Shown piece after piece: positions 35,732 through 47,533 of a stretch of 64,000 nucleotides of DNA (within the stretch, counting starts at the first letter, position 1; each line of letters starts with the position of its first letter). Made by a program: the position numbers and the translations under genes. The stretch covers positions 10,664,001 through 10,728,000 of the forward strand of contig OZ024760.1 in assembly GCA_964016885.1 (NCBI GenBank), written 5' to 3'. Origin of the DNA: Eledone cirrhosa (Eukaryota). The notes beneath the pieces are model-generated. The model worked only from the letters and a program-made list of their open reading frames with translations. It was not told the origin of the DNA and ran no database searches.

Positions 35732-35788
35732 ATGAGATTCCTGATGATTTCTAAAGAATGAAACAGTTCTAGTCCTGTAGAATCTCAT
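35732..35788 (+). ncRNA. Type I hammerhead ribozyme (family B)
   Basis: ATGAGATTC-CTGATGA-tTTCtaaaGAAt-GAAA-CAG-ttctagtc-CTG-TA-GAATCTCAT. Confidence 0.8.
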
Positions 35789-36204
35789 CTATATTAAAAC
35801 TTTTATACTCTGCTATGTATATATATATATATATATATGTATATACATCATCATCATCATCATCATCATCACCGTTTTACTACATATATATATATATATA
35901 CATACTACATATATATATATACATACATATATATATATACATACATATATATATATATATATATATATATATATATATATATATATATATATATATATAT
36001 ATGTATATATATATATATATATACATATATATATATATATATATATATACATATATATATATATATATATATACATATATATATATATACATATGTATTT
36101 ATACATACATATATATATATACGTTATTCCGGGTTGAATCGGAGGTAACCACAGTAAGTAAGGGACTCAATACATAGCAGAGCATAAAAGTTTTAATATA
36201 GATG

Positions 36205-36255
36205 AGATTCTACAGGACTAGAACTGTTTCATTCTTTAGAAATCATCAGGAATCT
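36205..36255 (-). ncRNA. Type I hammerhead ribozyme (family B), inverted copy
   Basis: Reverse complement of 35735-35785; associated downstream segment extends to ~36121. Confidence 0.8.
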
Positions 36256-36544
36256 AGCTTTCCAAAAATAAATTTATTTTTGGAAAGCCATATATTAAAA
36301 CTATATATATATATATATATGAGTATTATATATATGAGTATTATATGTATGTATATATATATATATATATACATACATATATATATATATATATATATAT
36401 ATATATATATATATGTATACATATGTATTTATACATATATATATATATATATATGTATGTATACATATGTATTTATATATATATATGTATATTTATATAT
36501 ATATATACATATATATGTATATTTATATATATATATATACACAT

Positions 36545-36881
36545 GGAGGCGCATGGCTTAGTGGTTAGAGCATTGGCCTTGCAATTGAAAGGTTGTGAGT
36601 TCAATTCTCAGACCGGGTGATGTGTTGTGTCCTTGAGCAAGACACTTCATTTCACATTGCTCCAGTTTACTCAGCTGTAGAAATGAGATGATAGGGACTG
36701 GGGTCCCTATCATTCCACTGCAAAGTGGTCGTGGAGGTGCCACGGAAAAAAAGCACCCAGCACTCACTGTAAATGAGGTTGGTGTTAGGAAGGGCATCCA
36801 GCTGTAGAAATCAAGCCAGAATCAGTTCCCGTCCCACCCTTGCAAGCAGGGAAAAGCGGACGTAAAATGAAATGATGATGA
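36545..36881 (+). mobile_element. tRNA/CORE SINE family 1 with RTE-derived 3' tail, full length
   Basis: Box A TGGCTTAGTGG, box B GAGTTCAATTC; GTGTCCTTGAGCAAGACACTT...CAGTTTACTCAGCTGTAGAAATG resembles the MIR CORE domain; 3' half matches RTE UTR; (GAT)n tail. Confidence 0.92.
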
Positions 36882-37109
36882 CACACACAATGGGTTGTGT
36901 GAAGAACTGTTTGCTGTCTAGTGAGTGTTTATAGTGAGAAAATAGGTATTTTGAGTATTCAACAAGTGAGTGTATAAAGTAATCATCAAGGCACTGCCTC
37001 TATAACTGTATATTGTGTCACATTCAAAATATATTGATAGATTGTATTGGTAACACCCCCCGACTATATATGTGTGTGTATATATATACACACACACACA
37101 CACACACAC

Positions 37110-39437
37110 ATAGTTGTCAGCGACCTCACGGTCAGAACTAGACGAGCCCTGAAACAGAGGCCAACCTGGAGAAGAAAGATCTGGAAGCTGAAAGTCCCCT
37201 CAACCAGTAACAGATTTAAAGATATTTTACTCAACGCCTACGACAGTAAAGAAGAACAGATAGAGACATTTAACGTAGAAGAGAACTGGGAGTTCCTAAA
37301 AAATAACTTACTAGAGGCGACGGATGAGGTTTGTGGCTGGAGTAAGACCTCAAGCAGGAGGAGAGTGACTTGGTGGTGGAACAATAAGGTAGATGAAGCA
37401 GTCAAGGCCAAGAGACAGGCATGGAAAGAATGGAAGAACGGGGGGAGCAGGGTACATTACATAGAGACCAAGAGGGAAGCTAGGCGACAAGTATACTTAG
37501 CTAGGAGGGAAGCAGAGGATAGAAAATTCAAGCATGTTTTACAACGTGAGGACCAGAAACAGGAGGTATTCAAGATTGCGAGGCAGTGTGTCAGAGATAG
37601 TTGTGATGTCATTGGAGAGAAGTGTATCCGGAATGATAAAGGTGAGCTTGCCCTCACAAGTGCTGAGAAGAAAGATGCATGGAAGAGTCATTATGATAGA
37701 TTACTAAATGAGGAGAATGCATGGGAAGAAGAGACCCTACCCCACGTAGACCCTATAGAGGGACCAGCAGTACAAGTCAGCGGCAGCGTAGTAAGTAAGG
37801 CAATCAGAGATATGAAGATAGGGAAGGCAACCGGTCCATCGGGTATAGCTGCCGAGATGCTGAAGGCATCTGGGTCTGTAGGTCACACTATAACCACACG
37901 TATCGTTAACCAGGTAATACTAGAGGGGGCCATACCAAAAGATTGGTGCAGTAGCATCATTGTCAACTGCTACAAAGGTAAAGGCGATGCACTAGATAGA
38001 GGAAACTATAGAGGTATAAAGTTGATGGACCAGGTCATGAAAGTAACAGAAAGAGTTATAGCACAGCTGATTAGGGACCGGGTGAATATAGACGAGATGC
38101 AATTTGGGTTTGTTCCAGGGAAAGGCACCACTGATGCGCTCTTCCTTGTGAGGCAATTACAGGAAAAGTACCTAGCTAAAAGTAAGCCACTCTACTTGGC
38201 ATTTGTCGACCTTGAGAAAGCCTTTGACAGAGTTCCACGTGCAGTAATCTGGTGGGCTCTTAGAAAACTAGGAGTAGATGAATGGCTTGTGAAAGCGGTA
38301 CAAGCCATGTATAGGGGAGCAGTCAGCAAAGTTAGGATTGGCAATGAGTATAGCGAGGAATTTAGCGTACAGGTTGGGGTCCACCAGGGCTCTGTTCTTA
38401 GCCCTCTCCTGTTCATCATAGTCCTGCAGGCAATAACGGAGGAGTTTAAGACCGGATGCCCATGGGAACTCCTGTATGCTGATGACCTCGCACTCATAGC
38501 TGAATCTATGGTAGAACTAGAGAATAAATTCCAAACCTGGAAGCAGGGACTAGAGAGAAAGGGCCTCAAAGTCAACATGACAAAGACTAAGGTCCTTATA
38601 AGTAGACGAGAAAACAGAACCCAGATCCCCTCAGGGAAATGGCCTTGCTCAGTATGTAGGAAAGGTGTAGGTAGGAACTCCATTCTTTGCCCCAAATGCA
38701 AACAATGGGTACACAAGAGATGTAGCGGGATCTCAGGAAGCTTAATTAAGAATGTAGGATTCACATGCAGCAGCTGTGCTGAAACAGCAAGCAAACAGCC
38801 ACAGGAAACAAGTACCACCAATCTCTGGGAGGGCCCTGTAGAAACAGTAGACAGCTTCTGCTACCTAGGTGACCGAATTAGCAACGGAGGTGGGTGCTCA
38901 GAAAGTACAATAACTAGGGTAAGAACGGGATGGAAGAAGTTTAGGGAACTACTACCACTGCTAGCTGCAAAAGGCTTCTCCCTCAGAATGAAAGGCAGAC
39001 TGTATGATGCGTGTATCCGAACAGCGATGTTGCATGGTAGTGAGACCTGGGCGCTGAAGGTGGAAGACTTACGTAGATTAGAGAGAAACGAAGCCTGCAT
39101 GCTCCGATGGATGTGTAACAGTAATATACGTGAACGACAAAGCATAAATGAATTGAGAGAGAGACTGAGCATAAGAGGAATCAAATGCTGCGTGCAGGAG
39201 AGGCGGTTACGCTGGTATGGACATGTGATGCGTATGAAGGATGACAGCTGCATAAAAAGGTGCAGAGCACTAGAAGTTGATGGAAACCGCGGAGTGGGGA
39301 GACCCAAGATGACTTGGGATGAGGTGATAAAAGCCGACCTTACCCAACTACACCTCTCAAAGTCAATGACACACGACCGTGACTTCTGGCGTCACGCAGT
39401 AATACAGGGTACCCGACCTCCCATGGGTACATGCTGA
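37110..39437 (+). CDS. RTE-clade non-LTR reverse transcriptase, 5'-truncated (APE endonuclease lost), frame intact
   Basis: WWWN, GKATGPSGI, NYRGIKL, QFGFVPG, FVDLEKAFDRV, QGSVLSPLLF, YADD (38475), FCYLGD, LHGSETW, RLRWYGHV. Track start 37047 lies in the flanking microsatellite. Confidence 0.95.
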   Translation: MVVSDLTVRTRRALKQRPTWRRKIWKLKVPSTSNRFKDILLNAYDSKEEQIETFNVEENWEFLKNNLLEATDEVCGWSKTSSRRRVTWWWNNKVDEAVKAKRQAWKEWKNGGSRVHYIETKREARRQVYLARREAEDRKFKHVLQREDQKQEVFKIARQCVRDSCDVIGEKCIRNDKGELALTSAEKKDAWKSHYDRLLNEENAWEEETLPHVDPIEGPAVQVSGSVVSKAIRDMKIGKATGPSGIAAEMLKASGSVGHTITTRIVNQVILEGAIPKDWCSSIIVNCYKGKGDALDRGNYRGIKLMDQVMKVTERVIAQLIRDRVNIDEMQFGFVPGKGTTDALFLVRQLQEKYLAKSKPLYLAFVDLEKAFDRVPRAVIWWALRKLGVDEWLVKAVQAMYRGAVSKVRIGNEYSEEFSVQVGVHQGSVLSPLLFIIVLQAITEEFKTGCPWELLYADDLALIAESMVELENKFQTWKQGLERKGLKVNMTKTKVLISRRENRTQIPSGKWPCSVCRKGVGRNSILCPKCKQWVHKRCSGISGSLIKNVGFTCSSCAETASKQPQETSTTNLWEGPVETVDSFCYLGDRISNGGGCSESTITRVRTGWKKFRELLPLLAAKGFSLRMKGRLYDACIRTAMLHGSETWALKVEDLRRLERNEACMLRWMCNSNIRERQSINELRERLSIRGIKCCVQERRLRWYGHVMRMKDDSCIKRCRALEVDGNRGVGRPKMTWDEVIKADLTQLHLSKSMTHDRDFWRHAVIQGTRPPMGTC

Positions 39438-46470: not shown

Positions 46471-46474
46471 TAAC

Positions 46475-47066
46475 TTAAGGTTTTGCTCCTGTCAAAGTTT
46501 CGTATTCCTGTAATAGGTTGCTGAGTACCTCGATTTCCGAGGTTTTCGACACCATTACGGTTACGTCGTTGGCGTAGACTGACACTGCTTTTCGCAGTCC
46601 GGGTTCCAAACGGATGCCCTGCAACAGCCCCAACTTCCGCAGTAATGGCTCGAGAGTCAGTACATACAAAATGGAGGAGAGAGGGCACCCCTGATGGATG
46701 GAATGCATGATTTGGAAGGGCTCCGATAGGTAGCTATTCACCTTGACTGCCGAGCAGATGCTGGTGTGCATGGCAGCGATCCAGCCTCTGAAGACGGGAC
46801 CGAAGCCGGCCGCCTTGAGAACCGCTTCCAAGTATTGATGGTCAACCCTATCAAATGCCTTAGGCTGATCTAAATTGATCAGAGCCCCATCGAAGCCAGG
46901 TTTACACCCCACCCTCTCTATGATGTATCGCATGTAGTGGAGGTTGTCGTGTGTGGACCTGGTTGGGATTGCACACGTTTGCGCTTCCCCTACCAGGTTC
47001 TTGACGACAAGCACTAGCCTCGTTGCTAATACCTTGGTCAAAATCTTTAACTCTGTGTTGAGCAGT
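46475..47066 (-). mobile_element. Tx1/L1-clade RT fragment
   Basis: QTCAIP.RS.HDN, LDQPKAFDRVDH.YL, QGCPLS.LYVL.LEPL, YANDV. Confidence 0.9.
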
Positions 47067-47123
47067 AACCACAGAAAGTAAGGTACTCAATACGTAGCAG
47101 AGTATGAATATTTAATATAGAAA

Positions 47124-47431
47124 TGGAGGCACATGGCTTAGTGGTTAGAGCATTGGCCTTGCAATCGAAAGGTTGTGAGTTCAATTCTCAGACCGGGCGA
47201 TGTGTTGTTTACTCAGCTGTAGAAATGAGATGATAGGGACTGGGGTCTCTATTATTCCACTGCAAAGTGGTCGTGCAGGTGCCACGGCAAAAAAGCACCC
47301 AGCACTCACTGTAAATGAGGTTGGTGTTAGGAAGGGCATCCAGCTGTAGAAATCAAGCCAGAATCAGTTCCCGTCCCACCCTTGCAAGCAGGGAAAAGCG
47401 GACGTAAAATGAAATGATGATGATGATGAAA
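47124..47431 (+). mobile_element. CORE-SINE family 1 (internal deletion) inserted into a family B hammerhead element
   Basis: GAAATGG on both sides; flanks 47066-47125 and 47432-47482 rejoin to match 36146-36250. Confidence 0.85.
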
Positions 47432-47482
47432 TGAAATGGCTTCTACAGGACTAGAACTGTTTAATTCGGGAGAAATTATCAG

Positions 47483-47533
47483 GGCTTCCTGATGATTTCT
47501 CCCGAATGAAACAGTTCTAGTCCTGTAGAAGCC
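47483..47533 (+). ncRNA. Type I hammerhead ribozyme (family B variant); mutated inverted copy at 47438-47482
   Basis: GGCTTC-CTGATGA-tTTCtcccGAAt-GAAA-CAG-ttctagtc-CTG-TA-GAAGCC. Confidence 0.8.

Follow-up and report, generated by a model that had tools for sequence, protein, structure and literature searches.

The window analysed here, a 64,000-nt stretch of the 3.0-Gb, microsatellite-rich genome of Eledone cirrhosa (C21:10664001-10728000), carries four hammerhead ribozyme motifs that are almost certainly pseudo-long terminal repeat (pLTR) fragments of a Hydra-clade Penelope-like element (PLE), assigned by diagnostic motifs. The ends of genomic copies make it probable that capped, uncut 5' ends of the element RNA are reverse-transcribed into (TA)n tracts. 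The element is of a known kind; the new parts are the copy-end evidence for capped, uncut templates and a very large hammerhead satellite on C28.

Hammerhead motifs and their parent element

A descriptor scan of the window returned three intact type I hammerheads (Table 1), each with the CUGANGA, GAAA and NUH core elements and three stems. Those at 35735-35785 (+) and 36255-36205 (-) are 51 nt each and identical in sequence, reading AGATTC / CTGATGA / T-TTC-TAAA-GAA-T / GAAA / CAG-TTCTAGTC-CTG / TA / GAATCT with the cut predicted after TA; the copy at 47483-47533 (+) has stem I GGCTTC/GAAGCC and loop TCCC. Element coordinates are counted from the C of CTGATGA (0), +39 being the first base past the predicted cut. 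The earlier note that described these motifs was correct as to their coordinates and sequences, the predicted cut after 35779 and the change of the stem II loop from UAAA to UCCC. Its statement that all four copies keep the core and stem III holds for these three; the 47482 arm on the reverse strand does not have the type I core, as it reads CTGATAA (G8 to A) and TTAAAC (G12 to T) and has lost the 5' strand of stem I.

Pattern searches of the genome with the exact 26-nt core gave 10,296 matches for the TAAA-loop form (6,426 on the forward and 3,870 on the reverse strand) and 1,895 for the TCCC-loop form (964 and 931), against none for the reversed pattern of either core, and therefore the motif is not a chance occurrence. 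A DNA similarity search of the genome with window positions 47483-47545 came back blank, an artefact given the 1,895 TCCC cores. Rfam, proposed in the earlier note as a check, gave no hammerhead model among the 150 window matches listed of 227 or among the 51 listed at 47400-47560, the matches being hairpin artefacts, and monomer folding of the 51-nt motifs was not better than that of shuffles (z -0.3 to -0.7). What supports the hammerhead call is accordingly the match to the descriptor, together with copy number, covariation and the context of the element.

The genomic copies share a stretch, located in (TA)n, from stem I to CCCGGAATAAC, and at one locus (L059) the match runs on into a reverse transcriptase (RT) open reading frame (ORF). 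When the start of this ORF was used as query, 22 of 30 loci had the 3' half of the hammerhead 119-123 nt upstream; seven of the remaining eight keep the downstream part of the repeat. A search with the endonuclease end found the element's own hammerhead within ~1.5 kb in just three of 30 loci, because the 3' untranslated region (UTR) is long; among 20 extended loci, a second hammerhead segment lies 3.7-7 kb downstream of the ORF in nine, and the frame is open for at least 758 codons in five. The order in the parent element is thus pLTR with hammerhead, an ORF of 713 aa encoding RT and GIY-YIG endonuclease, a microsatellite-rich 3' UTR, and a second pLTR with hammerhead, so that the earlier note's proposal of a Penelope-like element with a type I hammerhead in its terminal repeat is borne out by ORF-linked parents. 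Four ORFs that were checked are stop-free and 96.3-99.4% identical, and the pLTR pairs of two elements differ at 4 and 2 of 535 nt, indicating a young family.

The product of the ORF, P0001 (713 aa), starts at a Met at residue 46 of the open frame, and its ATG is at +175, so the hammerhead lies entirely in the 5' UTR. A non-AUG start had been considered and was dropped, as intact copies have this Met. P0001 contains IRWR (residue 82), DKT (161), GLYRDDG (390), CNCLNKEAC of the CxCx5C type (611), CDLCISE (711), CMH (739) and, at its C terminus, a GIY-YIG domain; DKG was absent in the motif search. Homologues numbered 1,203 among 8,000 scored candidates, and in the best 120 (39-53% identity) motifs of the IRWR, DKT and CxCx5C types were present in 90, 119 and 113, respectively. 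A regular-expression search found no CxxC before YIG in P0001 or the 120 homologues, and in this respect the endonuclease is not of the CCHH type.

A single ORF for RT and GIY-YIG flanked by pLTRs, together with a hammerhead in the pLTR, an inverted 5'-truncated copy and an optional tail, is the organisation of endonuclease-bearing (EN+) PLEs. The features given for the Hydra clade in the available text of PMC8557442, namely a C-terminal GIY-YIG domain, an RWK-type motif, DKG changed to DKT, CxCX5C, CxxC/CxH around E and N, and insertion in (TA)n, recur here; compared with its members Hydra-1_Obim and Penelope-n_HM, the present element has RW(K/R), DKT, CxCx5C and CxxC/CxH flanking E and N, as well as (TA)n targeting, a type I hammerhead of the form CTGATGA-T...T-GAA, inverted 5'-truncated copies and a short optional tail (PMC8557442). 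Membership of Naiad was rejected, the endonuclease being C-terminal and the hammerhead canonical. Hydra-clade elements are described as generally <3 kb (PMC8557442), unlike the present unit of ~4-7 kb (pLTR to pLTR ~3.7-7 kb in nine loci), which is long because of its microsatellite-rich 3' UTR. In L161:3670-6130 and other full-length copies, this part is a TA/TG-rich microsatellite of 1-4 kb whose length varies between copies. Relative to the clade as described in PMC8557442, the present genome holds >10,000 hammerhead copies, and its hammerhead differs from the one listed for Hydra-1_Obim in that stem II has 3 bp and the loop of stem III is 8 nt long and includes a CUAG palindrome.

Copy ends and the probable use of capped, uncut sense templates

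Copy ends were read in 90 of the first 100 matches listed among 8,218 strand-balanced matches to a 3' pattern downstream of the cut. The main arm ends at +125..+137 in (TA)n in 86 of the 90, which agrees with the (TA)n insertion of the Hydra clade, and two continue into the ORF. Upstream, 29 of the 90 reach past -40. Among the other 61, 49 reach -9..+4 (in either arm), one reaches -18, seven stop at +6..+35, one at +36..+42 and three later. The pile-up at -9..+4 has a binomial p of ~4e-36 against uniform truncation; copy ends at the cut site are neither enriched nor proven depleted. Of the 63 copies with a main arm that starts no further upstream than -40, 52 were flagged for an inverted arm (in a few cases on weak matches), the outer end of which lies mostly at ~+47..+67.

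A TATA box, TATAAATA, lies 29-33 nt upstream of -6, the edge of stem I, in 56 of the 57 parent copies with the exact box, and this spacing is kept although the spacer sequence differs between subfamilies. The GGCTTC subfamily was scored for its base at -7, a position at which cap copying and fold-back through stem I would leave different bases, T or A in the case of fold-back. Among 47 (TA)n-joined copies, -7 was G in 34, A in 9, T in 2 and C in 2; promoter-bearing parent copies have C in 15 of 16, and the extra G is thus untemplated by the parent. An additional G of this kind is the published signature of L1 insertions that are capped and full-length (PMC11702581). The pile-up at the stem I edge below a TATA box and the untemplated G together suggest that the templates of the short copies were likely capped, sense and uncut. 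In the literature searched, no report of cap-derived bases at PLE junctions was found, on which subscription papers and supplements may also bear.

The pile-up could also stem from RT stalling, from fold-back of the cDNA through stem I or from a 3' splice site (CCCAG/ATTC) in the same element. Fold-back through stem I does occur in single copies (L012), the AGATTC subfamily has a T-rich tract and CAG at the start point, and in Drosophila virilis Penelope the intron extends up to the 5' end of helix I (PMC4209133). A hairpin stall, however, would be expected at the 3' base (+44) rather than at -6; the GGCTTC subfamily does not have that AG and still starts G-GGCTTC; the junctions have no common upstream exon; and the constant TATA spacing does not fit these origins, which we regard as unlikely.

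As in the Penelope elements of D. virilis and Adineta vaga (PMC2377424, PMC3846280), the present pLTR carries a promoter, and tandem arrangement and an inverted pLTR with a junction palindrome are seen; a putative TATA box and initiator have been noted in Adineta (PMC3846280). In D. virilis, Penelope has an intron and a TATA-less internal promoter (PMC2377424), whereas here transcription appears to start at the ribozyme's first base, as fixed by an upstream TATA box.

Covariation of the stems

Subfamily tallies were made on 74 candidate promoter-bearing copies, the filter having admitted a few non-promoter copies. The pair -6/+44 was A-T in 61, G-C in 8, G-T in 3 and other in 2, and the pair -4/+42 was A-T in 54, C-G in 14, T-G in 2 and other in 4; the intermediate stem I AGCTTC/GAAGCT is also present among copies. 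The change from AGAUUC/GAAUCU to GGCUUC/GAAGCC with pairing kept, read by the earlier note from the window, is therefore real at two compensatory pairs. The alignment for covariation held 33 of the 42 distinct candidate promoter-bearing copies (nine doubtful ones omitted) and two window copies. Over its 34 distinct sequences, 95.2% of cells were paired and 18 were altered on both sides (0 of 500 shuffles; 1-3 cells in slid controls). These two-sided changes are limited to two pairs of stem I and represent two inherited events, both on subfamily-founding lineages; no pair of stem II or III was altered on both sides in the 34 sequences. The covariation foreseen in the earlier note is thus present in the two-sided cells and not in the pair-count measure, which was not above shuffles (437 of 500). 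Likewise, its claim of structural selection stands, as a suggestive rather than strong case, for parent lineages, where the two stem I events modestly favour it, and does not extend to the individual genomic copies, which are decaying fragments.

The U·U at positions 10.1-11.1, the first of stem II, occurs in 71 of the 74 copies, in place of a purine-pyrimidine pair. The earlier note had called it non-canonical. It is already published for the Hydra clade, as are inverted 5' ends: CTGATGA-T...T-GAA is found in most Hydra-clade hammerheads in the supplement of PMC8557442, where an Octopus member is listed.

Proposed mechanism

Under the mechanism we propose, TATA-driven transcription would begin with the first base of stem I and yield a capped RNA. 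RT would prime internally ~130 nt downstream and run off at the cap, leaving mostly ~135-nt hammerhead-only copies in (TA)n. Extension would take place on both nicked target strands, and head-to-head palindromes would form where the 5'-run-off ends of the two cDNAs are joined; full-length copies would need read-through into the next pLTR. Cleavage would not be required for insertion, and the hammerhead may be a weak, dimer-dependent ribozyme, with a self-complementary stem III and CUAG loop, selected in parent lineages.

Similar steps have been described in vitro for the Anolis Poseidon element PAc (PMC11167929), in which priming by RT is internal, close to the 5' end of the ORF, the target is cut and extended on both of its strands, the hammerhead needs the protein for cleavage, and uncut RNA is the main substrate. 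PAc resembles the present element in the hammerhead near the 5' end of the ORF, the two adjacent 3' ends that define the tail, the AT-rich targets and the apparent use of uncut RNA as template. It differs in belonging to another clade, the present hammerhead lies wholly in the 5' UTR, and the evidence is biochemical for PAc and genomic (copy ends, extra G) here. The proposed route is distinct from antisense self-priming (PMC3846280) and from the circular-template model (PMC4209133).

Head-to-head palindromes would also result if self-priming took place on an antisense template, a route suggested for rotifer Penelope elements (PMC3846280), and single fold-back junctions occur among the present copies. 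The extra G, however, is located at the sense 5' end, and the two arms have separate recurring outer ends (~+47..+67 and +125..+137), as two primings on sense RNA would give, so we consider an antisense origin quite improbable.

Several points weigh against the reading as a whole. The end sample covers only the first 57 Mb of C1; being anchored on the 3' side, it misses copies that stop short of +116, among them three of the four copies in the window. Ends at the cut site are not significantly scarcer than uniform truncation predicts (1 of 61 against 3.3 expected, p=0.26), and two exact junctions of (TA)n to the cut site exist in the commoner subfamily, found with a pattern whose length was unmatched to that of the -7 base test. 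The transcription start is placed from DNA ends, the G could also arise if RT adds an untemplated C in a cap-independent manner, and the D. virilis Penelope promoter is internal and TATA-less (PMC2377424). As for the element and its ribozyme, Pfam gives P0001 no RT match and a sub-threshold GIY-YIG match, the Hydra placement goes by sequence motifs, and the minimum free energy structure of the TAAA-form monomer is not the hammerhead fold (P ~0.001).

It is unlikely that the hammerhead no longer cleaves and that its fold is retained solely for a structural or protein-binding role in the 5' UTR. Such a role would suit the 3-bp stem II with U·U, the disfavoured monomer fold and the apparently uncut templates, and eight of nine Xenopus retrozyme dimers did not cleave (bioRxiv 10.64898/2026.07.22.740005). 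Against it, all catalytic core positions are kept across subfamilies with changed loop II and stem I, the U·U-bearing axolotl hammerhead HHR_Amex2 cleaves (PMC7229834), and the Poseidon hammerhead cleaves once its protein is added (PMC11167929). PLE hammerheads cleave as dimers (PMC4209133; review PMC6765202), and the strong self-duplex computed for stem III (-12.8 kcal/mol, against -1.4 kcal/mol for the hairpin) fits such cleavage.

A 78-bp hammerhead satellite on C28

The strand excess of TAAA cores led to tandem joints in contigs of run X1 and from these to 2,196 forward junction matches. They mark an array at ~C28:30,496,733-30,873,760 (377 kb), whose 78-bp head-to-tail unit is hammerhead segment -22..+55 (L315-L331, L335, L336, L340-L343). 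All 23 of the ~38 ten-kb tiles that were read carry the array, with 2,745 units, mostly 77-81 bp, and a few interruptions; assuming continuity, the array has about 4,800 units. Higher-order periodicities of 14-42 units are present. The array opens with a head-to-head pLTR insertion, where it joins a short copy in inverted orientation, and this insertion likely seeded the satellite. A 7-unit piece of the same type lies on C1 at 350.2 Mb (L334:5250-5800), and a different tandem repeat of ~420-500 bp adjoins the end of the satellite at C28:30.874 Mb (L336:3750 onward).

Units differ by 3.1% from the commonest unit, and 1,557 of 2,051 scored units keep the core, 997 of them together with the stems. 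Selection on the core was not found among these non-independent units (mismatch 2.5% in the core, 3.2% in stems and 3.4% at free positions; p=0.15, 0.43), and the satellite appears to drift neutrally. When two pairs of adjacent intact units were folded, a dimer with swapped stem III was predicted, with a mean pair probability of 0.50-0.59 against 0.02-0.04 for two monomers.

With hammerheads in consecutive head-to-tail units, the C28 array is organised like retrozymes, and it resembles non-LTR retrozymes (PMC7229834; bioRxiv 10.64898/2026.07.22.740005) in its type I hammerheads, pLTR derivation and predicted dimers. Unlike them, its unit of 78 bp is essentially the ribozyme alone, ~4,800 units stand at one locus, the birth site and parent element are visible, and the core bears no sign of selection. 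Tandem hammerheads have been proposed to be pLTR-derived, with a maximum of 300 units across 35 genomes (Li et al., bioRxiv 10.64898/2026.07.22.740005), and reach 62-mers in Acropora coral (PMC7229834); the C28 array is far longer than those described in the available parts of these two sources. No published description of this hammerhead family or array was found in the octopus-hammerhead or cephalopod satellite, Penelope and ribozyme literature as far as available, including PMC6962438, and ribozymes are unmentioned in the accessible part of the centromere atlas.

The dispersed copies themselves are very unlikely to be non-autonomous retrozyme monomers that arose by cleavage, circularisation and rolling-circle copying. 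Tandem type I hammerheads do yield circular RNAs in coral, mussel and axolotl (PMC7229834), and a tandem array of the same hammerhead exists in this genome. The dispersed copies, however, are colinear with the pLTR of ORF-bearing parents and unpermuted at the cut site, with no pile-up at +39. The satellite unit has neither the TATA box nor the +60..+130 priming region and is concentrated at one locus, plus the 7-unit C1 array, and the window copies are solo or inverted rather than head-to-tail. The retrozyme and circular-RNA reading of the earlier note is accordingly not upheld for dispersed copies.

Window copies and neighbouring repeats

Features of the window copies are listed in Table 1. 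The copies at 35.7 and 36.2 kb are independent insertions placed tail-to-tail within one (TA)n tract; this convergent pair is not one element with inverted ends because the copies differ in sequence and at both ends. The palindrome at 47.4-47.55 kb is a single head-to-head insertion, the left arm of which was later split by a short interspersed element (SINE). Of the two inverted pairs described in the earlier note, the palindrome is thus a Penelope-type inverted end and the convergent pair a coincidental co-insertion. The GGCTTC/TCCC subfamily is the older one, with 6.4% mismatch to the subfamily majority over +26..+44 against 0.8%.

Table 1. Hammerhead-bearing pLTR copies and associated features in the window
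Positions	Strand	Feature	Element coordinates and remarks
35732..35820	+	Short pLTR copy, AGATTC/TAAA subfamily	-9..+79; intact hammerhead at 35735-35785, with the cut predicted after 35779; runs into (TA)n on its 3' side
36120..36273	-	Separate pLTR copy, AGATTC/TAAA subfamily	-23..+129; hammerhead at 36255-36205 intact; 3' end CCCGGAATAACG, as is usual
36274..36302	+	Short inverted (fold-back) arm on 5' end of the 36273 copy	Ends in (TA)n; boundaries approximate; read from sequence, cf. L031
47065..47126	-	Left arm, outer part	+43..+104; separated by later SINE, target duplication ~7-8 nt (GAAATGG)
47127..47432	+	tRNA-like SINE-type repeat inside left arm, foreign to the element	Boundaries approximate; Rfam tRNA match at 47134-47191 scoring 28.1 bits, under the gathering score of 29
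47433..47483	-	Left arm, inner part	-1..+49; G8 to A, G12 to T, stem I 5' strand absent; predicted inactive
47483..47550	+	Right arm of head-to-head insertion, GGCTTC/TCCC subfamily	-6..+61; hammerhead 47483-47533; predicted cut after 47527

A tblastn search with P0001 gave no match to the rest of the element within the window. The two pairs were therefore rejected as flanks of one element, the intervening ORF being unrelated, and the 11 kb separating them lies outside the element. That interval contains an open frame of 798 codons (37041-39437, +) with RVT_1 and PHD domains, of long interspersed element (LINE) type and unrelated to the Hydra ORF. The inverted pairs were also rejected as functional dimers, since a 47433-47540 transcript would be one long hairpin (-88 kcal/mol) burying the ribozyme.

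Other hammerhead-like motifs (CTGATGA, a long stem II, and GAAA-TATG-TA with minimal stem III) are present in the window at 61200-61256 (+), 60749-60688 (-) and 16509-16450 (-); they have relatives in many (TA)n loci and probably belong to other Penelope-like families. Another repeat family with head-to-head palindromes lies at 35427-35624, 12620-12714, 19890-20062, 56403-56618, 59921-60134 and 60884-61009; it has a hammerhead-like 3' half (GAAAC-GGC...GCC-GTC, cut after GTC) and has the GTATTGAGTAC motif in common with the Hydra-clade element. Window positions 1-4000 hold a C-rich, strongly skewed low-complexity repeat with periodicities of 18-42 nt. Elsewhere in the genome, the reverse strand of L091 (~4300-4550 and 5540-5700) contains fragments of other Penelope-like endonucleases nested in (TA)n beside a Hydra copy, one of them with a CPNC..YVGQT (CCHH-type) motif, and eight near-identical loci ~60 kb apart (L046-L053, C12:17.02-17.48 Mb) form a large tandem segmental duplication.

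Implications

The role of the hammerhead in endonuclease-bearing Penelope elements has been stated to be unclear (PMC8557442), and the mechanism behind the head-to-head ends of Penelope is debated. The present family is young, with intact ORFs and >10,000 copies, and its copy ends give genome-scale support for capped, uncut sense templates with internal priming. We tentatively suggest that the thousands of insertions could be read as a fossil 5' rapid amplification of cDNA ends (5'-RACE), in which the ribozyme is the structure that opens a capped, TATA-driven mRNA and copying is restricted to uncut RNA, that the hammerhead might act as a dimer-gated decapping switch rather than as the processing step of transposition, and that a single insertion may have grown into the 377-kb array of ~4,800 hammerheads.

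For the proposed derivation of tandem hammerhead repeats from PLEs, the satellite offers a direct parent-to-array case, and it also provides natural dimers. Were it transcribed, self-cleavage might release 78-nt RNAs or circles from it, and it would then represent a pure-ribozyme satellite observed as it arose from a known parent. The mechanism, if true, would also explain the abundance of solitary hammerheads in animal genomes.

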